From: Betaproteobacteria bacterium | GTDB taxonomy: Bacteria; Pseudomonadota; Gammaproteobacteria; Burkholderiales; JACQAP01 | NCBI GenBank assembly: GCA_031406075.1 | Contig: JANOGP010000413.1 | Coordinates: 1-56,653 of the forward strand | Reading direction: 5' to 3' | DNA: 56,653 nucleotides | In this document: piece by piece, positions 22,741 through 42,419 of the stretch | How the letters are laid out: every line of letters begins with the position of its first letter | Numbering within the stretch: position 1 is the first letter of the stretch | Notes under the pieces: generated by a model | What the model saw: only the letters and a program-made list of their open reading frames with translations | Told to the model about the DNA's origin: nothing | The model's database searches: none | Translations under genes and position numbers: made by a program

Positions 22741-22769
22741 TTCCAGCCGACGTTCGGGGGAGAAATTCA

Positions 22770-24843: not shown

Positions 24844-25458
24844 TTATGACTTCGGATCGAAACCGAGTATCTCGTTCGCATTGATCACCGCGTCGGCGAT
24901 TTCCTCGGCGGTGACGCGTTTGCTCATCGCCTGATCACGGATGATCTTGTAGGCGTCGTCTTCCGACAGGCCGCGGGTGTTCATCAGTATCGCCTTGGCC
25001 TTGTTGATCTTGCGCAATCCGGAAAGTCTTTGCTCGAGGCGCGCGATGTATTTTTCCTGCGTACGGGCCTTCTCAGCCTGATTCACGGAAACCACGATCG
25101 AGGTCAGCAGGCCGAATGATTTTACCGGAGAGGCAATGACGCCGTAGGCGTTGAGCTGCAGTACCGCTTCGACGATCACCGGGTTTTCGTAATTCACGAC
25201 AGGGATGACCGGCGGAGATCCATCGCGCCGCAGCCAGGGCAGATCCATTGACAACACCTCGGGTCGCATGGCGAAAATCACGATGTCGGTTTCTTCCGGG
25301 AGCTTGTCCAGCGGCGGCCAGAATGCCTTTACACGGCATCCGATGCGCTGCAGCTGACTGAGCAATTCCTGCCCGTCCTGATCGTCGGGATGGAAAACCA
25401 GCACGCGAAGAGAGCGCAGCTCTCTCAGCAGACGCGGTGTGCCTTCGCTCTTTCTCAT
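24844..25458 (-). CDS. amiR: AmiR-type ANTAR antiterminator (pseudo-receiver plus ANTAR domain)
   Basis: 204 aa. The C-terminal ANTAR block is RLSGLRKINKAKAILMNTRGLSEDDAYKIIRDQAMSKRVTAEEIADAVI. The N-terminal half has the layout of the P. aeruginosa AmiR pseudo-receiver. Confidence 0.85.
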   Translation of the reverse strand: MRKSEGTPRLLRELRSLRVLVFHPDDQDGQELLSQLQRIGCRVKAFWPPLDKLPEETDIVIFAMRPEVLSMDLPWLRRDGSPPVIPVVNYENPVIVEAVLQLNAYGVIASPVKSFGLLTSIVVSVNQAEKARTQEKYIARLEQRLSGLRKINKAKAILMNTRGLSEDDAYKIIRDQAMSKRVTAEEIADAVINANEILGFDPKS

Positions 25459-25479: not shown

Positions 25480-26637
25480 TTACCGGGCGTGAATCTGCGC
25501 ACGGGCCGACCAGTCCTCGAGCGAGTGTGACACCAGGTAAGGATCGGGCCGAACCCAGCGCTGCGCCTCTTGAAGGATGTCGAACTGGCCTTTGGCATTC
25601 ACTCTGCCGATGCGTGGCCGCAGGTAGGTATGGTGGTTATGCTCGTCAATTCGTACTTTGCCCTGCGGCCCGGAGAATTCCGAGCCCGGAAGGACGCGTA
25701 GCAGGTCCAGGATGTCGTCGGTATCGACGCGGCGCATCGCATCGGCAAGAAGGTGAGTCTGGAAGTACGCCGCTTCCCAGCACATATTGGTAACTTCGTC
25801 CGCGCCAAATCGATTCTTGAACTGCGCGACACAGCGCTTGTTGGTTTCGGTATCGATGCTCTGAAAGTAGGGCGCTGAAGTGATGTGGCCTTCGGCAATG
25901 TCGGCCCCCATCTGCCGCACTTCCGCTTCGCAAGTGGTGAGGCTCGCTATGGGCATTTTCGCCGGGTCCAGTTTGACTTGCGCGTACGCCCGATGGAGCA
26001 AAGATGTGCCGAACCCCACAACGGTCGAAAAAATGAAATCCGGGTTCGTCGCCTGGATTTTTTTTGCGACGGTGACGTAGGATTCCCAGGACGCGTCAAG
26101 CGGCAAGTAGACCTCCGCGACTTTCTCGCCGCCGCGTTCGACGATCAGGTCGCTCATGATGCGGTTGGATTCGTACGGATAAATGTAGTCCGATCCGACC
26201 ATGAATACACGGGAGCCGAATTCGCGCATCATGAATTCCGCGAGTTGCACACTGTTCTGGTTTGGGGCGGCGCCGGTGTAAATGACGTTGCGCGAGTACT
26301 CGAAGCCCTCATAGAGCGTCGGATACAGAAGCAGGCCGTTCCAGCGCTCGACAACCGGAATCACCGCCTTACGGGTGCTCGACATGTAGCAGCCAAGAAT
26401 GACCTGGACCCGGTCTTCCAGAAGCAACTGTTTTGCCTGCGAAGCGTACAGCGCCGGGCGCGATTGCGGATCGTAACTTGCCAATTGCAGTTCGCGGCCG
26501 TTGATTCCGCCGGCTTCGTTGATTTCCTGCACTGCCAGCAGCGTACCCTGCCTTTCGGAGCGCTCGATAACCGAGGTGACGCCGGTTTCGGAAAACAGGA
26601 GACCGACACGAATCGGTGCCGTTGATCTGGATTTCAT
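25480..26637 (-). CDS. amiC: AmiC-type amide sensor / negative regulator (periplasmic-binding-protein fold, cytoplasmic)
   Basis: 385 aa from ATG 26637 (the track start 26802 adds 55 junk residues). IRVGLLFSETGVTSVIERS...GCYMSSTRKAVIPVVERWNGLLLYPTLYEGFE, with no signal peptide. Located directly upstream of amiR. Confidence 0.85.
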   Translation of the reverse strand: MKSRSTAPIRVGLLFSETGVTSVIERSERQGTLLAVQEINEAGGINGRELQLASYDPQSRPALYASQAKQLLLEDRVQVILGCYMSSTRKAVIPVVERWNGLLLYPTLYEGFEYSRNVIYTGAAPNQNSVQLAEFMMREFGSRVFMVGSDYIYPYESNRIMSDLIVERGGEKVAEVYLPLDASWESYVTVAKKIQATNPDFIFSTVVGFGTSLLHRAYAQVKLDPAKMPIASLTTCEAEVRQMGADIAEGHITSAPYFQSIDTETNKRCVAQFKNRFGADEVTNMCWEAAYFQTHLLADAMRRVDTDDILDLLRVLPGSEFSGPQGKVRIDEHNHHTYLRPRIGRVNAKGQFDILQEAQRWVRPDPYLVSHSLEDWSARAQIHAR

Positions 26638-26789
26638 TTTCCTGCCTGGACTGTTACGCGGGTAAGTCCTGTTCCTGTCCCGCCGCGGCTTGCCCGAGCG
26701 CGGTGGAATTGGGCCTTGGCCTGACTTCCGGTTTGAGCGTGGGCACAAGTGTAGGCCATGATGAACGTGGTGCGAAGCGCATTGAGCGC

Positions 26790-26818
26790 TTGAATTTGGC
26801 ACGGGTAAGGATTATATA
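26790..26818 (+). promoter_or_regulatory. candidate sigma70 promoter for the urt-amiE-ure transcript
   Basis: TTGAAT, 17-nt spacer, TATATA. It would give a ~465-nt leader. No experimental support. Confidence 0.3.
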
Positions 26819-27162: not shown

Positions 27163-27210
27163 CGGCTGAAGACAAAGACGTCGAAGCCGAGCGAGGCAGA
27201 GGAGCCCGCT
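27163..27210 (+). promoter_or_regulatory. ANTAR-type dual hexaloop hairpin RNA target (P1 27163-27189, P2 27190-27210)
   Basis: P1: CGGCT/AGCCG plus GAC/GTC stems around loop AAAGAC. P2: AGCG(A)GGC/GCCCGCT stem around loop AGAGGA. Both loops have A at position 1 and G at position 4. The P2 3' arm overlaps the terminator 5' arm. Confidence 0.55.
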
Positions 27211-27241
27211 GACCGGAGGTACCGGCCAGTGGGCTTTTTTT
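27203..27241 (+). terminator. intrinsic terminator/attenuator in the leader, 50 nt upstream of urtA
   Basis: AGCCCGCTGACCGG-AGGTA-CCGGCCAGTGGGCT has 12 Watson-Crick pairs, 1 GU and 1 mismatch. It runs into TTTTTTT (27235-27241). Confidence 0.7.
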
Positions 27242-27290
27242 CTGATTGCCGCGACTTGCGGCGCACGTTTCCGACGGGAGAGGAGTCACA

Positions 27291-28481
27291 ATGAGCAAGT
27301 TCGACAGGCGGGACTTTTTGAAGGCTGGCGCCGCAACGGCTGCGGCGGGTATTTTGCCGGCACCCTTTATTTGGCCCAAGGGTGCGCACGCAGCCGACAC
27401 CGTGAAGGTTGGCATCCTGCATTCGCTTACCGGGACGATCGCGATCGCGGAAAAATCGGTTGTCGACGCGGAAATGCTGGCGATCGAGGAGATCAACAAG
27501 GCCGGCGGCGTCATGGGCCACAAGATCGAGGCGGTCGTCGAAGACGGCGCCAGCGATTGGCCGACGTTTGCAGAGAAGGCCCGCAAGCTGATCGTGAGGG
27601 ACAAGGTCGCGTCAGTGATGGGCTGCTACACGTCGGCTTCCCGCAAAGCCGTGCTGCCGGTATTCGAGAAGGACAAGGGACTCCTTTACTACCCGACCTA
27701 TTACGAAGGACTCGAGATATCGCCGAACATCATGTACACCGCCCAGGAAGCCACCCAGTCGGTGGTCGCTGCCATGGAATGGCTGTACAAGAACAAGGGC
27801 AAAACCTTCTACATGATCGGCTCGGATTACATCTGGCCGCGGACCACGATCAAGATCGCCAAGGCCACGCTGGCGCGTCTTGGCGGTAAGCTGGTCGGTG
27901 AGGGCTACTACCCGCTGGGACATATCGAGTTTTCCTCCGAGATCAACAAGATCAGAGCCTCCAAGCCCGACGTTGTCCTCAACTGCGTCGTGGGAGGCAG
28001 CAACGTTGCATTCTTCAAGCAATTGACTGCTGCCGGCATCACCGGAAAGAACCAGACGGTTCTGTCGTTGGCGGTCTCGGAAGAAGAGGTCTCCGGGATT
28101 GGTTCGGACAATACCGAAGGGACTCTGACCTGCATGGGCTATTTCCAGAGCCTGAAGAATTCGGCGAACGATAAGTTCGTCAAGGCGTTCAAAGCCAAGT
28201 ATGGGCAGAACCGCGTCGTGGGCGACACTCTGGAATGTGGCTACATCTCGGTATACCTGTGGAAGATGGCGGCCGAGAAAGCCAAGAGTTTCGACGTCGA
28301 GAAAGTGGTCGCTGCATCTTCCGATCTGGCGATCGATGCACCGGAAGGAAAGGTCAAATTCCACAAAGCCAATCACCATTTGTGGAAGCATGCGCGCATC
28401 GGCACTTTCCGCAGGGATGGCCAGGTGGACATGATTTACGAATCTTCACTGATCGAACCGAATCCTTTCCCGAAGCTGTAA
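27291..28481 (+). CDS. urtA: urea/short-chain-amide ABC transporter substrate-binding protein (UrtA/FmdD-like), Tat signal
   Basis: MSKFDRRDFLKAGAATAAAGIL...AHA|AD is a twin-arginine signal. VKVGILHSLTGTIAIAEKS...GCYTSASRKAVLPVFEKDKGLLYYPTYYEGLE is paralogous to AmiC. RBS is GGGAGAGGAG. Confidence 0.9.
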   Translation: MSKFDRRDFLKAGAATAAAGILPAPFIWPKGAHAADTVKVGILHSLTGTIAIAEKSVVDAEMLAIEEINKAGGVMGHKIEAVVEDGASDWPTFAEKARKLIVRDKVASVMGCYTSASRKAVLPVFEKDKGLLYYPTYYEGLEISPNIMYTAQEATQSVVAAMEWLYKNKGKTFYMIGSDYIWPRTTIKIAKATLARLGGKLVGEGYYPLGHIEFSSEINKIRASKPDVVLNCVVGGSNVAFFKQLTAAGITGKNQTVLSLAVSEEEVSGIGSDNTEGTLTCMGYFQSLKNSANDKFVKAFKAKYGQNRVVGDTLECGYISVYLWKMAAEKAKSFDVEKVVAASSDLAIDAPEGKVKFHKANHHLWKHARIGTFRRDGQVDMIYESSLIEPNPFPKL

Positions 28482-28510
28482 CGATAGTTGGTGTTTTGCA
28501 TCAGGGCACG

Positions 28511-28559: not shown

Positions 28560-28613
28560 GCGCCGTCCCGGGATGCATGGAATTGATCGGTTGAAACAAA
28601 GGCGGACTGTCAT

Positions 28614-29516
28614 ATGACTGCGGATATGCTCGCCATGCAGGCGTTCACCGGACTGAGCATCTTTACCATCCTGATGCTCATGGCGCTGGGGCTCGCCATT
28701 GTCTTCGGTCTGATGGGCGTCATCAACATGGCTCATGGCGAGTTGATGGCGATGGGGGCGTACGCCAGCTACGGAACCGCTTATTTTTTCCAGCATTTTC
28801 TGCCGCACTGGATGGACGCCTACATCTTTGTGGGCATCGCGCTCGCGTTCGTCGTCACCAGTATTTTCGGATATCTGCTGGAGCGCGGGCTTATCCGGTT
28901 TCTGTATCAGCGTCCGCTTGACACACTGCTGGCGACCTGGGGTGTCAGTCTTATTCTCCAACAATGCTATCGCCAATTCATCAATCCACGAGAGGTCGAA
29001 GTTCCTACCGTCTCCTGGCTTCGGGGCGCGTGGCAGGTGACTGAAGGTGTTTCGCTGCCGTTATCGCGGATTTTCATCATCTGCCTGGCAATCGTCACGG
29101 CCGTACTGGTTTACCTGCTTCTGTACCGTACGCGTGCGGGAATTCTGATTCGAGCAGTGACGCAGAACCGGTCCATGGCCGGTGCTGCCGGGATCAATAC
29201 CAAGCGCGTCGACGCCTACACATTTGCCCTGGGGTGCGGACTTGCGGGAATCGCGGGCAGTTCCTTTACCATGCTGGCCTCGACCGGGCCGACGACGGGT
29301 CAGCAGTACATCGTCGATACGTTCATTGTTGTCGTATTCGGTGGCGTGGAAAGTCTCATCGGAACCGTTGCCTCGGCGTTCATCATCGGTCAGATGCAGT
29401 CCTGGTTCGAATTCGGAATGAGCGGGTCAATGGCACGCGCGAGCATCCTGGTTCTGGTGATCGTGGTTCTGTATTTCCGGCCTAACGGTCTGTTCGCAAC
29501 GAAGGTGAGACGATAA
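28614..29516 (+). CDS. urtB: urea/amide ABC transporter permease (UrtB-like)
   Basis: 300 aa, multi-pass, branched-chain-type (LivH-like) permease. Position in the urtABCDE order. Confidence 0.85.
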   Translation: MTADMLAMQAFTGLSIFTILMLMALGLAIVFGLMGVINMAHGELMAMGAYASYGTAYFFQHFLPHWMDAYIFVGIALAFVVTSIFGYLLERGLIRFLYQRPLDTLLATWGVSLILQQCYRQFINPREVEVPTVSWLRGAWQVTEGVSLPLSRIFIICLAIVTAVLVYLLLYRTRAGILIRAVTQNRSMAGAAGINTKRVDAYTFALGCGLAGIAGSSFTMLASTGPTTGQQYIVDTFIVVVFGGVESLIGTVASAFIIGQMQSWFEFGMSGSMARASILVLVIVVLYFRPNGLFATKVRR

Positions 29517-30691
29517 TGGCCGATGGCGTCCCGCTCGAGCGCGCGGGCGAAGCTGCTGCCGCGGATCTGCACGACCGCGGCATATGGATAGGAAGAGCCG
29601 GACTGGCGATTCTTGCCGTGATTTTATTCGCAGTTCTGCCATTCGCGCTGGATGTTTTCCGTCTGGGATTGGCGGCAAAATATCTCAGCCTGGCTTTCTG
29701 TGCGGTAGGAATCGTTCTGATCTGGGGTTATGGCGGAATCCTGAGTCTCGGGCAGGGAGCGTTCTTCGGCCTGGGCAGTTACATGATGGCCATGTTCCTC
29801 AAACTGGAGTCGACCTCCTCAGGCAGCTCGGCACAGGCTTTGTCCTCCTTTTTCGGATCCAACCTCCCCGACTTCATGGTCTGGAACAGCGTCGAAACGC
29901 TGCCATGGTGGTGGGAACCGTTTCATTACGTCCGGTTCACCATTCCGGCCATCCTGCTGTTGCCGCCTTTGCTGGCGTTTGGTTTTGGCTACGCGATTTT
30001 TCGCAAACGGGTCGGCGGCGTGTACTTTTCAATCATCACGCTGTCGTTGTCCGCGATCATGTCCATCATGATCATCGGTCAGCAAGGCGTGACCGGCGGC
30101 GTCAACGGAATCAACGATTTCCGGACTTTCATGGGGATCGACCTGAATACGGACGACGCGAAGCGGGCGATGTATTTCATTACCTGTGGGCTACTGCTCA
30201 TGTGCGTGGTCGCGGGAAGTTTCATTCTGAAAAGCCGGTTGGGCAAGGTTCTGGTGGCGATTCGCGACCGGGAAGACCGCGTCCGGTTCTCGGGGTACGA
30301 CCCGGCACTCTTCAAGGCATTCATTTTTGCCGTTGCGGCATTTTTCTCCTCGCTTGGCGGCGCGATGTTTACGATTCAGGTCGGCCTGGCTTCGCCTTCG
30401 CTGGTGGGCATCGTGCCGTCGATCGAGATGGTGATCTATGCCGCCGTCGGCGGCCGGCTGTCCCTCATCGGTGCCGTGTATGGCGCGCTGCTCGTGGGCG
30501 CGGCCAAGACCTTGTTTTCCGAGAATTTTGTTGAATACTGGATGTATTTCATCGGCGGACTGTTCGTTTTCGTGGTGATGTTCCTGCCTCATGGGCTGGC
30601 AGGATTACTGGAGCGAATTCGCGGCTACCGGACTATCCTGCCCAAGCTGTCCAGGTTGCCTGACAGCCAACGCGGCGGGGCCGGCAAATGA
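29516..30691 (+). CDS. urtC: urea/amide ABC transporter permease (UrtC-like)
   Basis: 391 aa, LivM-like permease. TAATG overlap with urtB. Confidence 0.85.
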   Translation: MADGVPLERAGEAAAADLHDRGIWIGRAGLAILAVILFAVLPFALDVFRLGLAAKYLSLAFCAVGIVLIWGYGGILSLGQGAFFGLGSYMMAMFLKLESTSSGSSAQALSSFFGSNLPDFMVWNSVETLPWWWEPFHYVRFTIPAILLLPPLLAFGFGYAIFRKRVGGVYFSIITLSLSAIMSIMIIGQQGVTGGVNGINDFRTFMGIDLNTDDAKRAMYFITCGLLLMCVVAGSFILKSRLGKVLVAIRDREDRVRFSGYDPALFKAFIFAVAAFFSSLGGAMFTIQVGLASPSLVGIVPSIEMVIYAAVGGRLSLIGAVYGALLVGAAKTLFSENFVEYWMYFIGGLFVFVVMFLPHGLAGLLERIRGYRTILPKLSRLPDSQRGGAGK

Positions 30692-31425
30692 GCGAAATGA
30701 TCCTGTCGGTTGAGGATTTGAGCGTCTCGTTCGACGGATTCAAGGTCGTGGACAAGCTGGCGTTTTATGTCGAGAAAGACGAATTGAGATGTGTGATCGG
30801 CCCAAACGGTGCGGGCAAGACAACGCTGCTCGACATGATTTGCGGAAAGACCAAGCCATCCAACGGAAGAATCCGGTTCAAGAACTACGAGCTGACGCAA
30901 ATGATCGAGTATCAGATTACGCGCGCCGGCGTCGGCAGGAAATTTCAGAACCCATCCGTGTACGAAGATCTGACGGTATTCGAAAACCTGGAAATTTCTT
31001 ACCCCGAGAAGCGCGGCATTCTCGGCTCGCTGTTCTTCAAGCGCGACGAGGAACTGATTCGCAAGATCGATAAGGTTGCCAACCAGATTTTTCTTCACGA
31101 AGTGCTGCGCCATAAGGCCGCGCAGCTTAGCCACGGACAGAAACAGTGGTTGGAAATCGGGATGCTGCTGATGCAAGACCCCGAGCTTCTGCTGCTTGAC
31201 GAGCCGGTGGCGGGGATGAGCCCAAGGGAAAGGGAGCAAACGGCGGAGCTTCTGAATGGGATCTCGAAGGGAAGGTCCATCGTCGTGATCGAGCATGACA
31301 TGGCCTTCGTGCGCATGATCGCGCACAAGGTCACGGTTTTGCACCAGGGCCGTCTTCTCGCGGAAGGCAGCATGGACGAAGTGCAAGGCGACGAAAGGGT
31401 CAAGGAAGTTTACTTGGGCCACTGA
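30688..31425 (+). CDS. urtD: urea/amide ABC transporter ATP-binding protein (UrtD-like)
   Basis: Walker A GPNGAGKTT, signature LSHGQKQWLE, Walker B LLLLDEP. ATGA overlap with urtC. Confidence 0.9.
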   Translation: MSEMILSVEDLSVSFDGFKVVDKLAFYVEKDELRCVIGPNGAGKTTLLDMICGKTKPSNGRIRFKNYELTQMIEYQITRAGVGRKFQNPSVYEDLTVFENLEISYPEKRGILGSLFFKRDEELIRKIDKVANQIFLHEVLRHKAAQLSHGQKQWLEIGMLLMQDPELLLLDEPVAGMSPREREQTAELLNGISKGRSIVVIEHDMAFVRMIAHKVTVLHQGRLLAEGSMDEVQGDERVKEVYLGH

Positions 31426-31441
31426 TTGGAGAGGGGCAGAG

Positions 31442-32131
31442 GTGCTTAGCGTAACCGGGCTAAACGTATACTACGGAGAGAGCCACGTAGTCAGAGATGT
31501 ATCCTTCGAGCTGAAGGACGGAGAGACCGTCGCGATCATGGGCCGCAACGGGATGGGCAAGACCACATTGCTCAAGTCCCTGATCGGGATCCTTCGGCCC
31601 CGCGGCGGGAAGATCGTCCTGAACAACCGGGACATTACCAACGCCGAGAGTTTCGACCGGGTGGCTGCCGGAATGGGCTATGTTCCGCAAGGGCGCATGA
31701 TATTTCCCTACCTTACGGTGGAGGAAAACATCCTGGCGGGAATGGAAACTTCTGTGAGCAAGGAAATCCCGGAATACGTATATTCCGTGTTTCCCGTTTT
31801 GCAGGAAATGCGCATGCGGCGCGCCGGAAATCTTTCAGGAGGACAGCAACAGCAACTCGCGATTGCGCGTGCACTTGTAAGCAATCCCAGGGTACTGGTT
31901 CTGGACGAGCCGACCGAAGGCATTCAGCCATCCATCATCAAGGAAATTGCGAGGGCGCTAAACAAGCTTAAAGCGGACCGCAAGTTCGCGTTGCTGGTGT
32001 CCGAACAGGTGCTGAGTTTCGCGAAGGAGATCGCGGACCGGTTCCTGATCATCGAGAGCGGGCGGTTCGTATACGAGGGATTCAAGGACAACCTGGATAC
32101 AAAAAGCATTCACGCGTATTTGACGATTTGA
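31442..32131 (+). CDS. urtE: urea/amide ABC transporter ATP-binding protein (UrtE-like)
   Basis: Walker A GRNGMGKTT, signature LSGGQQQQLA, Walker B VLVLDEP. GTG start. Confidence 0.9.
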   Translation: MLSVTGLNVYYGESHVVRDVSFELKDGETVAIMGRNGMGKTTLLKSLIGILRPRGGKIVLNNRDITNAESFDRVAAGMGYVPQGRMIFPYLTVEENILAGMETSVSKEIPEYVYSVFPVLQEMRMRRAGNLSGGQQQQLAIARALVSNPRVLVLDEPTEGIQPSIIKEIARALNKLKADRKFALLVSEQVLSFAKEIADRFLIIESGRFVYEGFKDNLDTKSIHAYLTI

Positions 32132-32262: not shown

Positions 32263-33303
32263 ATGCTACACGGAGACATTTCGAGCAGTAAAGACACCGT
32301 AGGGGTCGCCGTTGTCAATTACAAGATGCCGCGCCTCCATACGAAAAAGGAAGTGCTGGAAAACGCCAGGAAAATCGGGGAAATGCTCAAGGGCATGAAA
32401 GTCGGCCTGCCCGGCATGGACCTGGTGATTTTTCCGGAGTACAGCACCCACGGGATCATGTACGACAGCAAGGAGATGTACGACACCGCTTCGAGCTGTC
32501 CGGGTGAGGAAACCGAGATCTTCTCTGCCGCCTGCCGCGCAGCCAAGGTATGGGGCGTATTCTCGCTGACCGGGGAGAGGCATGAGGAGCACCCGAACAA
32601 GGCGCCGTACAACACGCTTATCCTGATGAACGACAAGGGCGAGGTCGTGCAGAAGTATCGCAAGATCATGCCCTGGGTGCCGATCGAAGGCTGGTATCCC
32701 GGCAACTGCACTTACATGACGGAAGGCCCGAAAGGCCTGAAGGTGTCGCTGATCATCTGCGATGACGGCAACTATCCGGAAATCTGGCGCGACTGCGCGA
32801 TGAAAGGTGCTGAGCTGATCGTGCGCTGCCAGGGGTACATGTATCCGGCCAAGGAGCAGCAAATCATCATGGCCAAGGCCATGGCCTGGGCCAACAACGT
32901 CTATGTCGCGGTCGCGAATGCGGCTGGCTTTGACGGCGTTTACTCTTACTTCGGCCATTCGGCGATCATCGGCTTCGACGGACGTACCCTGGGAGAGTGC
33001 GGCGAGGAGGATTACGGCATCCAGTACGCTGCCCTGTCCAAAAGCCTTATCCGCGACGCACGCAAGAACATGCAGTCCGAGAATCACCTGTTCAAGCTGT
33101 TGCACCGCGGATATACCGGCCTGATCAATTCGCGCGAAGGCGATAAGGGCGTGGCGGCCTGTCCGTACGACTTCTACAAGAAGTGGATCACCGATCCGGA
33201 CGCCACCCGCGAGATGGTCGAAGCGATCACCCGCACCACCGTCGGCACGGACGAGGCGCCGATCCCGGGTATTCCCAACAAGAAAGAGCCGGCGCACCGC
33301 TGA
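32263..33303 (+). CDS. amiE: aliphatic amidase (nitrilase superfamily)
   Basis: 346 aa, near-colinear with my recollection of P. aeruginosa AmiE ([24 protein letters not shown]...). Glu/Lys/Cys triad contexts are FPEYS, YRKIMPW and [14 protein letters not shown] is AAGGAGAAG. Confidence 0.9.
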
Positions 33304-33367
33304 CCGGATGCCGCACCGGCAGGGGCCGTGCTTTGCGCACGACCGCTGCCGGACGGCTATTTTTCGA

Positions 33368-33823
33368 ATGGCAATGCTGAAACTCGAATGCATCGTCGGC
33401 GCGGCGACCGAGCCTTCCATTGCCGGCAGGCTGCACGAGCTGGGCCATCACGGGCGGGTTGAATATCTGACTCTGTCTCAGGAGGACACGCACCGGCATC
33501 GTCTGCGTGCCGACACCGATGCCGGTACCGAGTGCGCGGTGATCCTCGATCGCGCGGAGCATTTGTACAACGGCGCGGTGCTGATGCTCACCGATGAGCG
33601 CGCAGTGGTGGTTCGCATGCGCGAGACCGAGTGGCTGACCCTCGCCCCGCGCGATACCTCTGCCGCGCTTGAGCTGGGATACTTCTCCGGCAATATGCAC
33701 TGGGCGGTGCAATTCGACGGCGCGCGGCTGCGCATTGCGCTGCAAGGCCCGGCACAACGCTACCTCGAGCGACTCGAGCCCTTCCTGGCGGACGGCCGCG
33801 TAAGGCAGATCGGCGATGCCTGA
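33368..33823 (+). CDS. ureE: UreE-like urease accessory protein without a His-rich tail
   Basis: 151 aa with an LGYFSGNMHWAVQF block at the position of the UreE LGNRH.P Ni-site motif. C-terminus ...ADGRVRQIGDA lacks poly-His. Overlaps ureF by 8 nt. Alternative start at 33374. Confidence 0.65.
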   Translation: MAMLKLECIVGAATEPSIAGRLHELGHHGRVEYLTLSQEDTHRHRLRADTDAGTECAVILDRAEHLYNGAVLMLTDERAVVVRMRETEWLTLAPRDTSAALELGYFSGNMHWAVQFDGARLRIALQGPAQRYLERLEPFLADGRVRQIGDA

Positions 33824-34496
33824 GCTGCAAAGCCTTTTGAGCGCGCTCCAGCACGCCGACAGTTTCTTCCCGAGCGGAGGCGTCGCGTTTTCTTCCGGAC
33901 TCGAGACCCTGCACGCCGACCGCGAAGTGACTTCCGTGGAGCAACTTTCAGTCTTTGTCGAGGGGCAGCTGAAGCACCGATGGGCCACTTGCGACGCCTG
34001 CGCGCTGATATCGGCTTTCCGCGCCAGCGGCAGTCTCGACCGGATTGCCGCGGTTGACGCGATCGTCGAGGCAATGAGCCTTGCAACGGAACTGCGCGAA
34101 GGCTCGAAACGTGCCGGTGCGTCGTTGTTGACGGTGCACGCCAGGCTCGGCACGACGGGCGCGGCCGATTACCGCGCGCTTATTTCGGCGCGCAAAGCGT
34201 TCGGCCATCTGCCGGTGGCGCAGGGTCTGTTGTGGAGCGCCGTCGGCATGACGGAAGACGCCTGCCGTGCGGTCTCGGCACACACGCTTTGCACCGGACT
34301 GATCGGGGCGGCACTGCGGCTGGGAATGATTGGGCACCTCGACGCGCAAAAAGTGCTGCTGGGCGTCCGGCCGATGCTGAGTGAGCTGCTGCGCCTGCCC
34401 GTGATGGATATTGATGAAATATGTGCCTACATGCCCGCCACTGAAATCGCGGCCATGCGTCACGAGGTGCAGGACTCGCGCTCGTTCGCCAACTAA
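33816..34496 (+). CDS. ureF: urease accessory protein UreF
   Basis: 226 aa with the characteristic N-terminus LLSALQHADSFFPSGGVAFSSGLETL. Confidence 0.85.
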   Translation: MPELQSLLSALQHADSFFPSGGVAFSSGLETLHADREVTSVEQLSVFVEGQLKHRWATCDACALISAFRASGSLDRIAAVDAIVEAMSLATELREGSKRAGASLLTVHARLGTTGAADYRALISARKAFGHLPVAQGLLWSAVGMTEDACRAVSAHTLCTGLIGAALRLGMIGHLDAQKVLLGVRPMLSELLRLPVMDIDEICAYMPATEIAAMRHEVQDSRSFAN

Positions 34497-34502
34497 GACA
34501 TT

Positions 34503-34634
34503 GGCCACAGAGGCCACAGAGGGCACAGAGAACTTCAGGTCTACAGTGCGGAATTCAGGGAAGAATTGTACGACGCCTTTCATGCTTCAATTTTGGTATC
34601 GGCTTTCCTCTGTGATCTCCGTGCCCTCCGTGGC
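34503..34634. repeat. palindromic element, 9-nt-unit family (copy A1)
   Basis: Left arm GCCACAGAG|GCCACAGAG|GGCACAGAG. The right arm is its imperfect complement (CTCTGTGAT|CTCCGTGCC|CTCCGTGGC). ~70-bp centre. Fills the ureF-ureAB spacer. Confidence 0.8.
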
Positions 34635-34646
34635 AAAGGAAAACCC

Positions 34647-35345
34647 ATGTTGTTAACGCCAACAGAGTTGGAACGACTGACGATCTACACGGCCGCGGAA
34701 CTGGCGCGCAAGCGTCGCGCCAAGGGCCTGAAACTCAACCATCCCGAGGCCACGGCGATTATCGCCGACGAGATCATGGAAGGCGCGCGTGAGGGGAAAT
34801 CAGTCGTCGAGCTGATCGGCTACGGTTCGACCATCCTCACCACCGACGATGTCATGCCCGGGGTGGCGGAGCTCATGCCGGTTTTGCAGGTGGAAGGCAC
34901 TTTCCCCGACGGCACCAAGCTGGTGACGGTGCATGACCCGATCAGACCCGGCAAGCAGAAGGCCGACACGAAGGCCGTGACCCCGGGAGAGATCCTCACC
35001 CCGGACGAGGATATAGAACTCAATGCCGGCCGCAGGAAAGTGAAGGTCAAGGCGGTGAACACCGGCGACCGGCCGATCCAGATCGGCAGCCACTATCATT
35101 TCTTCGAAGCCAACAAGGCGCTCGATTTCGACCGGGGCGCGTCCTTCGGCATGCACCTCGACATTCCCGCGGGCACCGCGGTGCGTTTCGAGCCGGGTGA
35201 AGTCAAGGAGGTGACGCTGACCGAATTCGGCGGCACCGGTGAAATATTCGGATTGAACAGCTTGACCAACGGCACGACGCGCAGCGATAGCCGCAAAGCG
35301 GAGGCGCTGGCGAAGGCGAAGGCGAAAGGTTTCAAGGGGGCATAA
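34647..35345 (+). CDS. ureAB: fused urease gamma-beta subunit
   Basis: 232 aa from ATG 34647. The gamma domain ([34 protein letters not shown]...[14 protein letters not shown]) is joined by a ~17-aa linker to the beta domain (TPGE...IELNAGR...[17 protein letters not shown]...GTAVRFEPG). Confidence 0.9.
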
Positions 35346-35350
35346 GAACA

Positions 35351-35457
35351 GGTACGGGGGCCGAGGTTCGAGGATTGAGGAATAAGGATCGAGGACTGAG
35401 GACTGAGGATTGAGGATTGAGTTCCGGTTTCCTCTCACCCCTCGTCCCTCGCCCCTC
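35351..35457. repeat. heptamer-array element (copy B1)
   Basis: About eight tandem GAGGNNN units (GAGGTTC GAGGATT ... GAGGACT GAGGACT GAGGATT GAGGATT). A C-rich complementary array follows: CCTCTCA CCCCTCG TCCCTCG CCCCTC. It ends 4 nt before the ureC2 RBS. Confidence 0.8.
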
Positions 35458-35470
35458 TTAAGGAGCATCC

Positions 35471-37183
35471 ATGGCACGAATGACCAGAAAAGAATACGCC
35501 GCAATGTACGGTCCGACGAAAGGCGACGCCGTCCGTCTTGGCGACTCCTCGCTGTTGGCGGAAATCGAGCACGACTATGCGATTCCGGGCGACGAGTGCC
35601 TGCACGGGGGCGGGAAGACCCTTCGCGACGGCATGGGGCTGAAGTCCGGCTTTGACAGCGCAGAGGGTGCGCTCGACATGCTGCTCTGCAACGCCACCGT
35701 AATCGATCCGGTGCTTGGCATTGTCAAGGGCGACATCGGCGTAAAGGACGGGAAGATCGTTGCCATCGGCAAGGCGGGCAATCCGGAAGTGATGGACGGT
35801 GTGCACCCCCGACTGGTCTGCGGTGTCGCCACCACGGTGCGCGACGCCGAAGGCCTGATCGCCACGCCCGGCGGCATCGACGTGCACGTTCACTTCGATT
35901 CGGCGCAGCTGTGCGAACACGCGATCTCTTCCGGTCTGACCACCATGATCGGCGGCTCGCTCGGGCCGATTACGGTAGGCATCGACTGCGGCGGAGAGTG
36001 GAACGTCGGCAAGATGCTGCAGGCTTCCGAGTCCTGGCCGATCAACTTCGGTTTCCTCGGTCGCGGCAACTCCTCGAAACCGGAGTCGCTGGTCGGCCAG
36101 CTGCGCGGCGGTTGCCTCGGACTGAAGATCCACGAGGACTGGGGCGCGATGCCAGCGGTGATCGACACCTGCCTGACGGTTGCCGACGAGCACGATTTCC
36201 AGGTGCAGCTGCACACCGACACCCTGAACGAATCCGGCTTCCTCGAGGATACGCTCGCCGCCATCAAGGGCCGCACCATCCACATGTACCACACCGAGGG
36301 AGCGGGCGGCGGGCACGCGCCGGACATTATTGCCGTCGCCGGGCAGATCAACTGCCTGCCGTCCTCGACCAATCCGACCAACCCGTACACCGTCAACACC
36401 TTCGACGAACATCTCGACATGATCATGGTGTGCCACCACCTCAACCCGGCGGTGCCGGAAGATGTGGCCTTCGCGGAGTCGCGCATCCGCGCGCAGACCA
36501 TCGCCGCCGAGGACGTGCTGCACGACATTGGCGCCATCTCGATGCTCGGCTCCGACAGCCAGGGCATGGGGCGGATCAACGAAGTCATCGCCCGCACCTG
36601 GCAGCTCGCCTCGAAAATGAAAGACCAGCGCGGCCGCCTGCAGGAGGAGAAAACCAGGCTTGGCGACAACGAGCGTATCAAGCGCTACATCGCCAAGTAC
36701 ACCATCAACGCGGCCCGCACCTTCGGCATCGACCGCTACATCGGCTCGCTGGAGGACGACAAGATCGCCGACATCGTGCTCTGGCGCCCCGGGTTCTTCG
36801 GAATCAAACCGGAACTGGTGGTGAAAGGCGGCTTTATCGTCTGGGGCGCGATGGGCGATTCCGCGGCCTCGCTGATGACCTGCGAACCGCTGCTCATGCG
36901 TCCGCAATGGGGCGCCTTTGGCGAAGCCAAGAAAGCGCTGTCGGTGAACTTCGTCAATCAGTTGGCAATCGATGCTGGTACCCAGAGCAAGCTCGGAATG
37001 ACCAAGCGGCTTCTCCCGGCGAAAGGCACGCGCAAGCTCAACAAGACCCACATGCTGCACAACGACGCCTGTCCGAACATCACGGTCAACGCCCAGACCT
37101 TCGACGTGATGATCGACGGCAAGGTGATTACGTGCGAGCCGGCGAAGACGGTTCCGCTAAGTCAGCGCTACATGCTTCGCTGA
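35471..37183 (+). CDS. ureC2: divergent urease alpha-subunit paralog
   Basis: 570 aa. It keeps [38 protein letters not shown] and SDSQGMGR. It has [25 protein letters not shown] and [18 protein letters not shown] where canonical ureases (including UreC1 here) have [27 protein letters not shown] and [17 protein letters not shown]. Confidence 0.9.
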
Positions 37184-37260
37184 GGGGCGAGGGGCGAGGG
37201 GTGAGGGGGTAAAGCAATTCCTGCAATTCCCTCTCCCCTCGTTCCGCGCCCCTCTTCCCT
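37182..37260. repeat. heptamer-array element (copy B2) with G-quadruplex motif
   Basis: GAGGGGC GAGGGGC GAGGGGT GAGGGGG begins inside the ureC2 stop codon. It reads as G4-N3-G4-N3-G4-N3-G5 (37184-37209). The C-rich partner CCCTCTCCCCTCG...CCCCTCTTCCCT lies at 37228-37260. Confidence 0.8.
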
Positions 37261-37295
37261 GCCGCGCGACCGATCGTACATACAGGAGGAAAGCG

Positions 37296-37955
37296 ATGAA
37301 CACTGTTACTCCCGAATTCGAAGGCAAGGCGGTCGCTGAGCGGCATCCCGGCGCCGCCCGCGTCGGCATTGGCGGTCCGGTCGGTTCGGGGAAGACGCGG
37401 TTGCTGGAACAACTGATCCCGCGATTCACCAGCCGCGGCACCAACATCGCGGTGATCACGAACGATCTGGCGACCAAGGAGGATGCGGAGCGCGTCCGCC
37501 GCAGCGGCTTGATCGATCCCGCTCGCGTGCTCGCAGTGGAGACCGGAGCCTGCCCGCACACCGCGATCCGCGAAGACCCGACCCTCAACATCCAGGCGGC
37601 CGACGCTCTCGACGAGAAGTATGGCAACCTCGACCTTATCCTGATCGAATCGGGCGGCGACAACCTTGCCTCGACGTTTTCGCTCGACCTGGTGGACTAC
37701 TGGATTTTCGTGATCGACGTGGCCGGCGGCGACGACATACCTCGCAAGCGCGGCCTGGGCGTCTTGCAGTGCGATCTGCTGGTGATCAACAAAACCGATC
37801 TTGCGCCGTATGTTGGGGTCAATCTGGAACGCATGGTGCGCGAGGCGAACGAAGTGCGCGGTGGCAAACCGGTCCTGCTCACCAACTGTGCGAAGGGCGA
37901 AGGCGTGGACGCAGTGGTCGATGCCATCGCCAACCAGGTGCTGTTCGACAAATGA
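37296..37955 (+). CDS. ureG: urease accessory GTPase UreG
   Basis: P-loop [29 protein letters not shown] and NKTDLAP. Confidence 0.95.
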
Positions 37956-38824
37956 AGCCGAAGGACCTTCCTGACGAGGGGTTGGTGCCTGCGAGTTCTT
38001 TCGTTTTTCAGGCCGACATCGAGTTCGCGCGCGATCCGGACGGCGCCACGGATGTCTGCCGGCAACGCGTGGGCTATCCCTTCCACCTTGGGAGGGCGTT
38101 GAGAATGCCCGGCGATCCGGCAGGCATGCCGACGGTGTACCTGCAGTCGTGCTCGGGCGGCATTTTCCAGCGCGACGATTTGCGAATGCGAATTGTCGCG
38201 GGCGCCGGCGCGTCGGCGCATGTAACGACCGCCGCTTCCACGGTCGTGCACGGCATGGAATCGGCCGGCGCACGGCAGTTTGTGGAACTCGAAGCCGGTG
38301 CCGGAGCGTTGCTGGAATACCTGCCCGATCCCCTGATCCTGTTTCCTCGCGCCCGCCTTGATAACGGTGTTCAGGTGCGGCTCGACCCGCAGGCATCGGT
38401 GATTCTCGGAGATGCGCTGATTCTTCACGACCCGAAGGGTGGGGGCGGCGCGTTCGAGTTTCTTGAATCGGAAACTGTCGTTCGTGACCGGGCGGGGAAA
38501 CTGCTGGTCTGCGATCGCTTCAGATGCAGCGGCGGCGATCTCGCGCGCGCGCGGCCCGGAATTAACGGAGCCTACGCGGCGCAGGCGACCCTGTTCGCGC
38601 TCACGTTGACGCGTCCCGCGAATGCGCTGGTCGGCGCGATGCGGCAGGCGCTGTCGTCGATCGAGGACGTCTATGCCGCCGCGTCCGCGCTTCCCAACGG
38701 CGCCGGCGCCTGGGTTCGCGTGCTCGCCCGCGACGCAATCGGCGCGCGCGCCGCACTGCACGCCGCCTGGGCCGCCGCACGCACTGAAATAACCGGCCAG
38801 GCGCCGGCGCCGCGACGCAAGTAA
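37952..38824 (+). CDS. ureD: urease accessory protein UreD/UreH
   Basis: 290 aa from ATG 37952 (ATGA overlap with ureG). Typical blocks [13 protein letters not shown] and [13 protein letters not shown]. Confidence 0.8.
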
Positions 38825-39043: not shown

Positions 39044-39862
39044 ATGAACGCGCCGGCAATGGACAAGATCATCGAGCAATATCGAATCTCCGAGGAGCCG
39101 TATTACCGGGCGATCGGCGACGAGGTGCAGACCTTCGATGCGGCGTACGCGGTGCGCATGCCGATAATGCTCAAGGGCCCGACCGGCTGTGGCAAGACGC
39201 GTTTTGTCGAGTACATGGCGTGGAAGCTCGGCAAGCCTCTCATCACGCTCGCGTGCAATGAGGACATGACCGCGTCCGACCTCGTGGGCCGCTATCTGCT
39301 GGATGCCGACGGCACCCGCTGGCAGGACGGCGCGCTGACGCTCGCGGTGCGCTACGGCGGAATCTGTTATCTGGACGAAGTGGTCGAGGCGCGCCAGGAC
39401 ACCACCGTTGTCATTCATCCGCTGACCGATGCGCGCCGCGTGCTGCCGCTGGAAAAGAAGAATGAGCTGATCCACGCGCATCCGGATTTTCAGCTGGTGA
39501 TTACCTACAACCCCGGCTATCAGAGCATCCTCAAGGATCTCAAGCAATCCACCAAGCAGCGCTTCGGCGCCATTGATTTTGACTATCCGACTCGCGACAT
39601 CGAGATCGAAATCGTCATTCACGAATCCGGAGTCGCAGCGGAGATCGCCGGCAAGCTCGTGACCATCGCCGAACGTGCGCGCAATCTGAAGGGCCACGGT
39701 CTGGAGGAAGGGATCTCCACGCGCATGCTGATCTACGCCGGCTCCCTGATTGCGCAGGGCATAGAACCCGTGTCCGCGTGCCATGTGACGCTGATCAAGC
39801 CCATCACCGACGATGCCGATATCCGGGACGCCCTCGGCGCCGCCGTGCGTGCTTGTTTCTGA
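39044..39862 (+). CDS. cbbQ: CbbQ/NorQ/NirQ-type MoxR AAA+ ATPase
   Basis: 272 aa: [67 protein letters not shown] (Walker A) and [15 protein letters not shown] (Walker B). Very close to CbbQ as I remember it. Confidence 0.85.
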
Positions 39863-40118: not shown

Positions 40119-42419
40119 ATGGCGAAGCTTGAAGACTACAGCGAGCTCCTGACAGCGCTCGGGCCGCATGCGCGCCAGCTGGTCCAGTCCACCTGGCTGG
40201 AGGCCACGCGTTCGTTCAGCCCGTCCGGCCTGACTCGCTATCTGGAGGGTGCGCGTGAGATCGCCACCGCCGGGCTGGGCTGGAGCGTGGTACTGGCCTA
40301 TCTGCGGGAAACGCCCGCGATCGCGCGCCAGGTCGGGGAGACCACCGCGTTTCGGACCATCGATGTCGCGCTGACGGTATATGCTCGTACCGATGCACGC
40401 ACTGGCGAACAAGTCTTCTCGTCCAGTATCGTAGCCGCGCGCCGCCTTGGAGACAGCGCGCTGTTCGCCGCCTATCTGGATTTCCTGTCCGAGCTGGCTG
40501 AGCTTGCGCCGGCCGGAATAGCGCCGATCCTTAATCGCATCGACCGTCTCCTGGAGCAGCTCAGCTTCGACGGACTGCGTCGCTGGGCGCTGCTCGGTGT
40601 GCAGTCGCACATGCGCGACCCCAATGCACAGGCGCGTTACTTTCAGCTCGACAGCGAAGAAGGAAGGACCCTGCTGCAGGCCGAGGGCGACCAGACCGTG
40701 TTCGCCGACGTGGAGCGGCGCATGTCGCTCTATCTGCGCGCACTGTGGGGGCGCAACATGAAACTGCGGCCGGTGATCCACACCAAGGGCGCCAATGCCG
40801 GCCGGCGTTCGACCATCGACGGTCTCACTATCCGCCTGCCGCAGTCCTATCGCGGTTTTGCCGGTCAGTCGGGTCTGGCGCTTTACCGCGCGGCGGCGGC
40901 GCACGCCGCAGCGCACGTCGTCTATACCACGCAACGTTTTCCGGTGGGCAGCCTCAAGCCATTGCAGGTCGCGTTGGTCTCGTTGATCGAGGATGCACGT
41001 GTGGAGCAACTGGCGATCCGGCAATTCCCCGGGTTGCGGCGGTTGTGGAAGACGTTTCACGTGGCGCAGTCCGGCGGCGCAGTGACCGCAGATTCGTTGA
41101 TGGCGCGGCTTGCGCGTGCATTGATCGACGAGGAATTTACCGACGACGACCCGTGGGTGAGCAAAGGGCGGCGGTTGTTCTTCGAACAACGCGCCTACTG
41201 GGAAGACCAGTCGATCAGCCGCGCGCTCGGCGGTCCGCTCGGAAACGACATGGGCCAGATGCGTGTGCAGTTCAATTTCAAGACTTACGTGGTCGAGCCG
41301 GCGTATCGCGACGACAACCAGGGCGTTTGGAATTTTGGCGACATGGCTGAGCCCTCGCCGGATGAAGACGATGTGGTGACCCAGGGGGCGCGGCTGGCCG
41401 ACGGAGAAAAAGGCCCCGAACGGGAAGAGGAGGAAGAAAGCGAGCCGCCCCCAGGCGAAGAGGAGAAGGTCAAACTGACCGCGCCGTCAAAGCACAACGA
41501 GCAACTCAAGGAAGAACCGCTGTCGCCACCGATGCGCTACGACGAGTGGGACTATCTGATTGGCCGGGATCGGCCGGCCTGGTGCACGCTGCTGGAAAAA
41601 CCGGCCGAGGAGGGCGATGCGCACGACATCGCTGAGATCCTCGATCGAAACGAAGATCTGGTGAACCGGGTAAAGGTGCTGGTGAAGGCTGTGCAGGTAC
41701 AGCGACCGGTGCGTCTCAGGAGAAGGTTGGAAGGCGACAGGCTGGATCTGGACGCCTGCATCAATGCCACGATCGATCTGCGTACCGGCGTGCCGCCCGA
41801 TCCGCGGGTTCACGCGATCCTGGGCCGCCAGCAACGCGACCTTTCGGTACTGGTGCTGCTGGACCTGTCGCAGTCCACCAACGACAGGGTTGCGAACACC
41901 GATACGACGGTGCTGAATCTGGCGCGCGAAGCCACGGTGCTACTGGCCGACGCGATGGCGCGCATCGGCGACAGTTTCGCGATCCACGGCTTCTCGTCTA
42001 ATGGCCGGCACGATGTCGGCTATTACCGCTTCAAGGATTTCGAGCGGCCCTACGGTGATCTGGCGAAAGCGCGGCTCGCCGGCATGACCGGGCAGCTCTC
42101 CACCCGAATGGGCACGGCACTGCGCCATGCCGGCGGCTACCTCAAGGACAAGCGCGCGCATAAAAAACTTATTCTGCTCGTCACAGACGGCGAACCCTCC
42201 GACATCGACGTGCACGATGCGCAATACCTGATGTTCGACGCCAAGAAGGCGGTGGAGGAGAACAGCCGCCACGGCATCTTTACCTACTGCATGAGCCTCG
42301 ATCCGAAGGCCGACCGCTATGTCTCGCGCATCTTCGGCCAGCGCAATTACATGGTGGTTGATCACATCCGGCGCGTGCCGGAGAAACTGCCGATGCTGTA
42401 CATGCGGGTGACGAATTAA
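40119..42419 (+). CDS. cbbO: CbbO/NorD-type von Willebrand factor A protein
   Basis: 766 aa with a C-terminal vWA domain and MIDAS context VLVLLDLSQSTND...LILLVTDGEPSDIDV. The acidic linker EREEEEESEPPPGEEEK is typical of CbbO/NorD. Confidence 0.85.
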   Translation: MAKLEDYSELLTALGPHARQLVQSTWLEATRSFSPSGLTRYLEGAREIATAGLGWSVVLAYLRETPAIARQVGETTAFRTIDVALTVYARTDARTGEQVFSSSIVAARRLGDSALFAAYLDFLSELAELAPAGIAPILNRIDRLLEQLSFDGLRRWALLGVQSHMRDPNAQARYFQLDSEEGRTLLQAEGDQTVFADVERRMSLYLRALWGRNMKLRPVIHTKGANAGRRSTIDGLTIRLPQSYRGFAGQSGLALYRAAAAHAAAHVVYTTQRFPVGSLKPLQVALVSLIEDARVEQLAIRQFPGLRRLWKTFHVAQSGGAVTADSLMARLARALIDEEFTDDDPWVSKGRRLFFEQRAYWEDQSISRALGGPLGNDMGQMRVQFNFKTYVVEPAYRDDNQGVWNFGDMAEPSPDEDDVVTQGARLADGEKGPEREEEEESEPPPGEEEKVKLTAPSKHNEQLKEEPLSPPMRYDEWDYLIGRDRPAWCTLLEKPAEEGDAHDIAEILDRNEDLVNRVKVLVKAVQVQRPVRLRRRLEGDRLDLDACINATIDLRTGVPPDPRVHAILGRQQRDLSVLVLLDLSQSTNDRVANTDTTVLNLAREATVLLADAMARIGDSFAIHGFSSNGRHDVGYYRFKDFERPYGDLAKARLAGMTGQLSTRMGTALRHAGGYLKDKRAHKKLILLVTDGEPSDIDVHDAQYLMFDAKKAVEENSRHGIFTYCMSLDPKADRYVSRIFGQRNYMVVDHIRRVPEKLPMLYMRVTN

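Follow-up and report, generated by a model that had tools for sequence, protein, structure and literature searches.

A second urease gene set, here called ure2, is described from a Burkholderiales-like genome (Betaproteobacteria bacterium, GenBank assembly GCA_031406075.1). The stretch analysed, hereafter the window, comprises 56,653 nucleotides (contig JANOGP010000413.1, positions 1 to 56,653, forward strand). A complete set of urease genes, ureE2-ureF2-ureAB (fused)-ureC2-ureG2-ureD2, occupies positions 33368-38824 of the + strand, downstream of genes for an importer and for the aliphatic amidase AmiE. Homologues of the amide sensor AmiC and of the antiterminator AmiR are encoded divergently, and a canonical ureA1-ureB1-ureC1 is found further upstream (Table 1).

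Table 1. Genes and transcription signals of the window, the ure2 cassette first.
Feature	Position	Strand	Basis
ureE2, nickel metallochaperone	33368..33823	+	Pfam UreE_N; NF009752 179 bits (cut-off 162); GNMHW (GNxH) motif
ureF2, accessory protein	33816..34496	+	Pfam UreF, E = 9e-30; 8-nt overlap with ureE2
ureAB, fused gamma and beta subunit, 232 aa	34647..35345	+	Urease_gamma (residues 1-99), Urease_beta (113-209)
ureC2, catalytic alpha subunit	35471..37183	+	Urease_alpha and Amidohydro_1 (PF00449, PF01979); E = 1e-207 to jack bean urease
ureG2, nickel-insertion GTPase	37296..37955	+	TIGR00101 238 bits (cut-off 204); P-loop GSGKT and CPH motif
ureD2, accessory scaffold	37952..38824	+	Pfam UreD, E = 4e-38; 4-nt overlap with ureG2
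Leader terminator hairpin and U7	27202..27250	+	Before the ribosome-binding site and the importer start codon
UrtA/FmdD-like periplasmic binding protein	27291..28481 (true start 27291)	+	Peripla_BP_5 and TAT_signal
urtB-, urtC-, urtD- and urtE-like permease/ATPase genes	28614..32131	+	Open reading frames; syntenic homologues in related loci
amiE, aliphatic amidase (nitrilase superfamily)	32263..33303	+	CN_hydrolase; directly upstream of ureE2
GC-rich hairpin followed by UAUUUUU	33310..33365	+	Between amiE and ureE2; -38.6 kcal/mol, z = -3.7
amiC, cytoplasmic amide-sensor homologue	25480..26802	-	E = 4e-104 to P. aeruginosa AmiC (1PEA); divergent
amiR, ANTAR antiterminator	24844..25458	-	AmiR_N, E = 1e-32; ANTAR, E = 2e-14
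ureA1-ureB1-ureC1, canonical structural genes	22438..24781	+	TIGR01792 991 bits for UreC1
CbbQ/NorQ-type AAA ATPase	39044..39862	+	Pfam
VWA/NorD-like protein	40119..42419	+	Pfam

The ure2 cassette and the active site of UreC2

A sequence-only reading of the window had announced a second structural urease set, with the gamma and beta subunits in a single open reading frame (ORF) of 232 residues. Both points hold: each of the six genes gives the expected Pfam and NCBIfam matches, and the fused ORF carries both domains and matches the NCBIfam model NF009671, "bifunctional urease subunit gamma/beta" (356 bits, cut-off 243). Helicobacter UreA is a gamma-beta fusion as well, but the window protein falls below the Helicobacter-type UreA model NF010592 (282 bits, cut-off 353). 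All cassette ORFs are intact, and UreC2 scores above the curated cut-offs for the alpha subunit of urease, EC 3.5.1.5 (820.6 bits against 680 for TIGR01792, 865 against 354 for NF009686). The gene order E-F-(AB)-C-G-D, singled out as unusual by the same reading, is so among ureases generally, but not within the lineage described below, where it is exact in 56 of the 61 loci with sufficient flanks.

The pocket was compared, in jack bean numbering, between nine diverse canonical ureases and 81 members of the UreC2 clade. Alignment to jack bean urease and to the clade shows that UreC2 keeps the nickel ligands (HxH, the carbamylated Lys, two His and the Asp of SDSQ), together with the equivalents of His222, Asp224, Gly280, the flap pair Cys322-His323 and Arg339, all near-invariant in the 81 sequences; the corresponding catalytic motifs read KIHED, MVCHHL and ESRIR. 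There are 22 positions at which the clade is fixed on a residue other than the one that is invariant, or almost invariant, in the canonical set, and 12 of these fall in four groups. The first is jack bean 411 (the Ile141 position), where Ile becomes Asp. The second, 431-445, is the Ala170 loop, where Ala440 (Sporosarcina pasteurii Ala170) becomes Gly and Thr442 (the Thr172 position) becomes Asp; it includes two of the three deleted loop positions that make this loop three residues shorter in the clade than in canonical ureases. The third comprises 631 and 636, with Gly for Ala636 (S. pasteurii Ala366), and the fourth 735 and 738. All 81 clade sequences have Gly at both Ala equivalents, whereas the canonical set has Ala366 in nine of nine sequences and Ala170 in eight of nine. 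Compared with the canonical nickel ureases (Klebsiella aerogenes UreABC, S. pasteurii, jack bean), ure2 thus shares the fold, the domain set (~56-60% identity), the catalytic residues and the UreDEFG-type maturation, and differs by these substitutions, the shortened loop, the gamma-beta fusion and the gene order.

In solved ureases, Ala170 and Ala366 act through their backbone carbonyls as hydrogen-bond acceptors for the Ni2-bound NH2 of urea, and Ala366 Cβ packs against the Ni2 water (PMC7433671, where the roles of the catalytic side chains are also described). Because the changed residues are those that hold this NH2 group, the pocket is remodelled on its Ni2 side. Gly170 and Gly366 would still supply backbone carbonyls, so that the contacts with urea may persist.

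The three stretches of UreC2 previously described as rewritten are real, as seen in the alignments to jack bean urease and to UreC1; the first two were placed through residue numbering (jack bean urease and the S. pasteurii literature). Some details of that description change. Retention of every metal-binding and catalytic block is correct for the nickel ligands and catalytic residues, but SDSQGMGR carries Gly for the canonical Ala (S. pasteurii Ala366). The rewritten loop of the GGGTGPA motif does touch urea, yet the contact is Ala170, six residues past the motif. As for HFICPQQ, it is far from invariant: canonical variants include HVHMISPQQ, HVHFICPEQ and HVHVLLPDL, and only Ile (8 of 9) and Pro (9 of 9) are kept. 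In other divergent urease-like clusters, changes in the third stretch accompany those in the Ala170 loop, no more than a hint of contact. An AlphaFold2 model of UreC2, built on a 31-row alignment of near-identical homologues plus UreC1, had a mean predicted local distance difference test score of 41 and was not used. The proposal of a nickel-type amidohydrolase with a remodelled pocket agrees with the full maturation set and with the two invariant Gly.

A pocket of this kind raises an alternative to plain urea hydrolysis, unlikely in our view though the most credible of the rivals considered: ure2 may have been adapted, along with its binding protein and an AmiC-type sensor, to some small amide that is not urea, or may have broadened its specificity. 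The simplest candidate is formamide, others being acetamide and an N-substituted urea; alternatively, urea and such amides might be hydrolysed comparably well. An apolar H or CH3 would then replace the Ni2-bound NH2 of urea and be accommodated by the Gly170/Gly366 pocket. The invariance of both substitutions and of the shortened loop, at residues of documented role, speaks for this alternative, while both changed residues work through backbone carbonyls that Gly retains, every side chain known to bind or activate urea is kept, and we know of no urease-fold enzyme with a non-urea physiological substrate.

Phylogeny and distribution of the ure2 lineage

The clade was delimited by the genome loci and by a gap in plasmid identities. 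A scan of one genome per species gave 80 loci at 81-94% UreC2 identity in Alpha-, Beta- and Gammaproteobacteria, the hosts including Burkholderiales, Pseudomonas (the syringae group and others), Stutzerimonas, Acidithiobacillus ferrianus, Arenicellales and many Alphaproteobacteria. Plasmid identities are bimodal: 15 records, from Aminobacter, Shinella, Methylobacterium, Ancylobacter and Acinetobacter, lie at 76-81%, and all others at 60% or less. Among metagenome clusters, the best 120 are 87-95% identical to UreC2. A library of representatives at 50% identity lumps ure2 with canonical ureases (best representative 57% identical) and is unfit to delimit the clade.

In a neighbour-joining tree of UreC sequences, the UreC2 clade is monophyletic in 100 of 100 bootstraps and sits on a long stem. 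It branches outside all canonical ureases sampled (90 of 100), whose clade includes a eukaryote-length representative, and is placed between them and several more divergent urease-like clusters. The shallow crown, the wide host range and a branching that is incongruent with the hosts together indicate that the lineage spread horizontally. Such transfer has already been proposed for the "urease 2" of A. ferrianus MG (PMC8886135), a ureEF(A/B)CGD cluster that is one of the present loci (L033) and has the same order and fusion, with a UreC2 85% identical to that of the window. It is an acid-resistance urease by annotation only, whereas the window ure2 sits in an operon with AmiC/AmiR, importer and amidase. 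Within the cassettes, identities across loci are 81-94% for UreC2, 68-92% for UreAB and 35-85% for UreD2.

The window instance is, by its sequence, a member of a lineage already catalogued: the Prokaryotic Genome Annotation Pipeline labels all genes of ure2 cassettes as urease, and NF009671 names the fused subunit. The sequence-only reading had mentioned fused ureAB with a second alpha paralogue in some Pseudomonas and Streptomyces genomes, and the combination does occur in Pseudomonas. The present analysis contributes a phylogenetic placement that is deep but tight, the invariance of the Gly170/Gly366 signature, the coupling of the cassette to AmiC/AmiR and to an importer with an AmiC-like pocket, and the alternative contexts described in the next section.

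Second urease clusters in one genome, as in the window, are also found in Helicobacter mustelae (the iron urease UreA2B2) and in Brucella (ure2). The H. mustelae iron urease needs no accessory proteins, whereas the window cassette keeps the full nickel set; Brucella ure2 has a different gene order and adjoins nickel and urea transporters. Brucella is also the precedent for regarding ure2 as an inactive or decaying paralogue: according to PMC2868824 and PMC1983905, its ure2 is transcribed and only ure1 gives active urease. For the present lineage this is very improbable, since the ORFs are all intact and the catalytic residues and clade signature are equally invariant across 80 genomes of three classes, which points to strong purifying selection.

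Operon contexts and the substrate of ure2

In the window, AmiE is well defined as an aliphatic amidase (713 bits against a cut-off of 427 for NF009802; 267 against 406 for the formamidase model). The AmiC-type sensor and AmiR adjoin the operon, and the same pair is present in Pseudomonas syringae. Window AmiC keeps Ser85, Tyr104, Thr106 and Tyr150, ligand residues of 1PEA, and has Leu for Pro107. The leader hairpin, missed by a simple terminator scan and found by reading and folding the sequence, is part of a stable fold (27100-27260, -71.7 kcal/mol, z = -3.8), and an equivalent hairpin with T7 is found in the P. syringae leader (L035, ~3250-3320). The operon may be placed under AmiC/AmiR control through read-through of this leader. 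Between amiE and ureE2, the second hairpin (0 of 200 shuffles as stable) is a possible internal attenuator; co-transcription of ure2 with the importer and the amidase, perhaps attenuated, is plausible. The arrangement resembles P. aeruginosa amiEBCRS in its AmiC sensor, AmiR ANTAR antiterminator, predicted leader terminator and AmiE, but the window regulators are divergent rather than downstream, and a five-gene importer of the ATP-binding cassette (ABC) type and the urease cassette are added.

Upstream contexts were counted in those loci, 60 in all, whose upstream sequence reached 9 kb or more. An Urt/Fmd-type importer lies directly upstream of ure2 in 40 of them, with an amidase in between in 21 and none in 19. 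Pseudomonas/Stutzerimonas loci have amiC and amiR in 15 of 15 cases and an amidase in none of the 15; in Pseudomonas, the AmiC/AmiR-importer unit would thus drive ure2 alone, with ure2 in the amidase slot. The link of ure2 to the importer and AmiE suggested by the sequence-only reading is therefore only partly general: both genes are upstream on the same strand in the window, but the amidase is inconstant elsewhere.

Importer specificity can be approached through the binding protein. In Prochlorococcus UrtA, urea is surrounded by Trp120, Ser122, Tyr141, Gln144, Glu146, Tyr190, Asn246 and Ser274; Gln144, Asn246 and Ser274 bind its nitrogens, Gln144 and Asn246 holding one of them (PMC10392092). 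Pocket strings were made of these eight residues and the less conserved Phe192 (same source). Genuine UrtA reads WSYQEYFNS, AmiC YSYPEYYVT and the window binding protein YSYYEYWVA, which differs from UrtA at four of the eight urea residues (W120Y, Q144Y, N246V, S274A) and has Trp for Phe192; on the UrtA model TIGR03407 it is a borderline pass (503.2 bits against 492.75). All 37 binding proteins of ure2-linked importers in the genome loci read [Y/F]SY[Y/F]EYWVA, and those of Acinetobacter and Methylobacterium [Y/F]SYFEYWVS. The Aminobacter protein (YTWWEYFVT) is more divergent and also lacks Gln144 and Asn246. An AmiC-like pocket is likewise found at ure2 loci without amidase. On plasmids, the nearest relatives share 57-72% identity and the pocket type with these binding proteins and come from operons without urease, in which the importer accompanies a formamidase (367 Klebsiella plasmid records) or an amidase with AmiC/ANTAR proteins (Caballeronia). 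Because the pocket is AmiC-like and the plasmid relatives serve formamidase or amidase, the importer lineage is, on sequence grounds, of the amide type.

A transporter of this kind need not exclude urea: FmdDEF of Methylophilus methylotrophus is reported to import short-chain amides as well as urea, and to be induced by formamide and urea (review PMC10781810). The FmdDEF system, likened here by functional description and not by sequence, also couples an Urt-like importer to a small-amide hydrolase, but it has FmdA as hydrolase and FmdB as regulator, where the window has AmiE with ure2 and AmiC/AmiR.

The homologous plasmid operons carry the annotation urtBCDE. Importers of this kind are widespread on plasmids of clinical Klebsiella. 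One of the Klebsiella importers (K. pneumoniae pKPN3-307_typeB, L085, 8926-14695) is annotated urtABCDE, shows the pocket WSYFEYWVS and is followed by the formamidase; the Klebsiella plasmid "urtABCDE" is thus probably mis-annotated as a urea transporter.

Other ure2 cassettes are placed behind different genes. Five alphaproteobacterial loci from metagenome-assembled genomes (MAGs; L034, L051, L055, L065 and L068) have another upstream block, ending directly before ure2 and consisting of a NitT/TauT-type ABC transporter, HypB and two tandem arginase-family genes (L034, 372-8088); four of the five also have a gene resembling type III glutamine synthetase. The arginase-family pair matches subunits A and B of metformin hydrolase (E = 1e-178 and 4e-167). 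The alpha-like protein is 68% identical to AnMefH-alpha, and has T-T-A where metformin hydrolase has N-S-A. Relatives at ~70% identity hydrolyse dimethylguanidine to dimethylamine and urea, and the genes of this dimethylguanidine hydrolase (DmgH) were remarked to cluster with urease genes (Sinn et al. 2024, PMC11399263). The MAG genes therefore look like natural relatives of the recently evolved metformin hydrolase, and a urea-releasing guanidine hydrolase is their probable product. The published DmgH clusters, with their downstream urease, have a counterpart in the five MAG loci, where hypB and the tandem DmgH/MefH-like genes directly precede ure2. The module is absent from the window, and in the Aminobacter plasmids examined ure2 lies beside AmiC/ANTAR proteins and an importer, not dmgH.

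The metformin hydrolase matches in the PDB had also brought up guanylurea as a substrate of ure2. This candidate was set aside: the MAG enzymes have T-T-A and not N-S-A, similarly distant relatives make urea from dimethylguanidine, and the Aminobacter plasmid ure2 is not next to mfmAB.

A third type of context is linked to ureides. In Methylobacterium radiotolerans, urate/allantoin genes are ~3-6 kb away from the cassette. In Aminobacter, ure2 is preceded by genes for allantoinase and allantoate amidohydrolase, for one AmiC-like and one ANTAR protein, and for the importer, and a HupE/UreJ nickel permease comes after it.

On this evidence, it is moderately probable that ure2 is a genuine, portable urease recruited into an AmiC/AmiR-controlled operon that scavenges amides plus urea. 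Urea is suggested as the substrate because the identical pocket signature occurs in at least three unrelated contexts that share only urea, namely an amide/urea-type importer, genes related to dimethylguanidine hydrolase, and nearby urate/allantoin genes. Furthermore, the urea-activating side chains are all kept and UreC2 stands above the curated urease cut-off. The sequence-only reading had leaned towards a substituted urea or a small amide. A non-urea substrate is possible, yet it is not the best-supported reading: the amidase is inconstant, the same pocket lies behind DmgH-like genes and near ureide genes, a dual amide/urea importer has a published precedent, and the retained urea side chains also favour urea.

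Several observations weigh against urea and sustain the alternative of a shifted specificity. The Ala170 loop is rebuilt and both carbonyl-donor residues are Gly throughout the clade. The ure2-linked binding proteins, with their AmiC-like pockets, all lack Gln144 and Asn246 and mostly lack Ser274, and their nearest plasmid relatives work for formamidase or amidase in operons without urease. In Pseudomonas, ure2 fills the amidase slot next to an AmiC-like sensor, and in Aminobacter, too, the amiC-amiR-importer unit would drive it without amidase. A canonical ureABC is found right beside ure2 in the window and in a close relative, an arrangement more readily understood if the two enzymes have different functions. 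Finally, the literature searched holds annotation-level mentions only, with no enzymology or assigned substrate for the ure2 clade; the sequence-only reading, likewise, knew of no assigned substrate. That ure2, the AmiC-type sensor and the importer with its AmiC-like pocket co-evolved for a non-urea amide (e.g., formamide) or an N-substituted urea is nonetheless doubtful, and a shade less probable than a shift in specificity taken broadly.

With urea as its main physiological substrate, ure2 would be a self-contained, horizontally mobile cassette made of a nickel enzyme and its own maturation machinery. In this genome it would form one operon with the FmdDEF-like amide/urea importer and AmiE. 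The AmiC sensor and the AmiR antiterminator would turn the operon on by reading through the leader terminator, and the hairpin after amiE might lower read-through into ure2. Imported C2-C3 amides would be hydrolysed by AmiE and urea by Ure(AB)C2, both giving ammonia for assimilation.

The ureC gene is a widely used marker of urea turnover in soils, waters and microbiomes, and the ure2 lineage is common, with more than 100 near-identical metagenome clusters and 80 genome species, always annotated as urease; it is also carried by megaplasmids of Aminobacter, Methylobacterium and Shinella, and by the P. syringae group. If ure2 is a normal urease, Ala170 and Ala366 are dispensable, and a portable urea-mineralising module has been placed behind quite different sources of urea, namely importers, a hydrolase of the guanidine type and purine catabolism. 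Should its specificity have shifted, urease is over-counted in marker-gene surveys and genome annotations, and a nickel amidase chemistry that is new comes into view. With a non-urea substrate, Ure(AB)C2 would be the first dinickel enzyme of the urease fold to have another physiological substrate, and many "urease" annotations in Proteobacteria would be partly misnamed. The residues singled out are Gly170 and Gly366, together with the two Asp that replace Ile141 and Thr172. The embedding of ure2 with amiE, as in the window, is one of several arrangements.

The canonical urease and other features of the window

UreC1 is 55-56% identical to UreC2 and scores above it on TIGR01792 (991 against 820.6 bits); an exact-sequence look-up of UreC1 gave no match. 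A tblastn search of the 56.6-kb window found no second ureE/F/G/D set, that of ure2 being the sole one, and the ure2 accessory proteins may mature UreA1B1C1 too. A stronger version of this idea holds that supplying UreE/F/G/D to UreA1B1C1 is the essential role of the cassette, Ure(AB)C2 being redundant or minor. It draws on the single accessory set, on the flanking of ureA1B1C1 by unrelated genes of the opposite strand, and on the close relative (L001), in which the importer directly follows ureC1 (75-1241) on the same strand, amiC and amiR not intervening. We regard it as improbable, clearly more so than a shifted specificity: within the cassette, conservation is highest for UreC2 and UreAB, well ahead of UreD2, which argues that the structural pair is not dispensable; most loci have no canonical ureABC within 10 kb, and the rest of the genome may hold a further accessory set.

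Downstream of ureD2, the CbbQ/NorQ and VWA genes appear to belong with the amidase. The cbbQ gene tracks the amidase and not ure2 (17 loci have both, none has cbbQ without amidase), and in L007 and L043 the cbbQ/VWA pair directly follows amiE. The amidase-cbbQ link has already been noted, and an activase or chaperone role speculated upon (PMC13209695); the present distribution suggests an activase or chaperone pair that is associated with the amidase. The importer part of the operon (26000-32000) has a G+C content of 0.56-0.58, against 0.62-0.67 in the flanks, which is compatible with a donor different from the surrounding DNA.

A YcaC-like cysteine hydrolase of the isochorismatase family recurs beside ure2 cassettes in three arrangements, at 21712-22260 (-) in the window, at ~7343 (-) in L007, L008, L009 and L043, and at 13127-13783 in L034; the other copies are 58-60% and 38% identical to that of the window. 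This family includes hydrolases of biuret, triuret and guanylurea. In P. syringae (L035, 13369-14673, -), an amidase-signature protein (PF01425, 434 aa) is encoded directly downstream of ureD2 and convergent to it.

The only Rfam matches are two of 5_ureB_sRNA (RF02514), which run antisense to each ureC gene in its 5' part, at 23228-23513 (-, 109.8 bits) and 35621-35921 (-, 42.5 bits), for a gathering score of 40. The family derives from a Helicobacter pylori antisense RNA inside coding DNA, and the matches were taken as probably reflecting conservation of the coding sequence, not a riboswitch or leader element.

Intergenic hairpin elements are found at 34503-34640, 35364-35457, 37182-37256, 48685-48899, 54447-54552 and 55785-56026. 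They consist of tandem 7- or 9-nt units and then the complement of these. The element after ureC2 (-69 kcal/mol, z = -5.1) begins with a G-quadruplex-type run, GAGGGGCGAGGGGCGAGGGGTGAGGGGG, and GAGGGGNGAGGGG has 10 occurrences for 0.4 expected. These elements look like a genome-wide family resembling repetitive extragenic palindromes, not specific to ure2.

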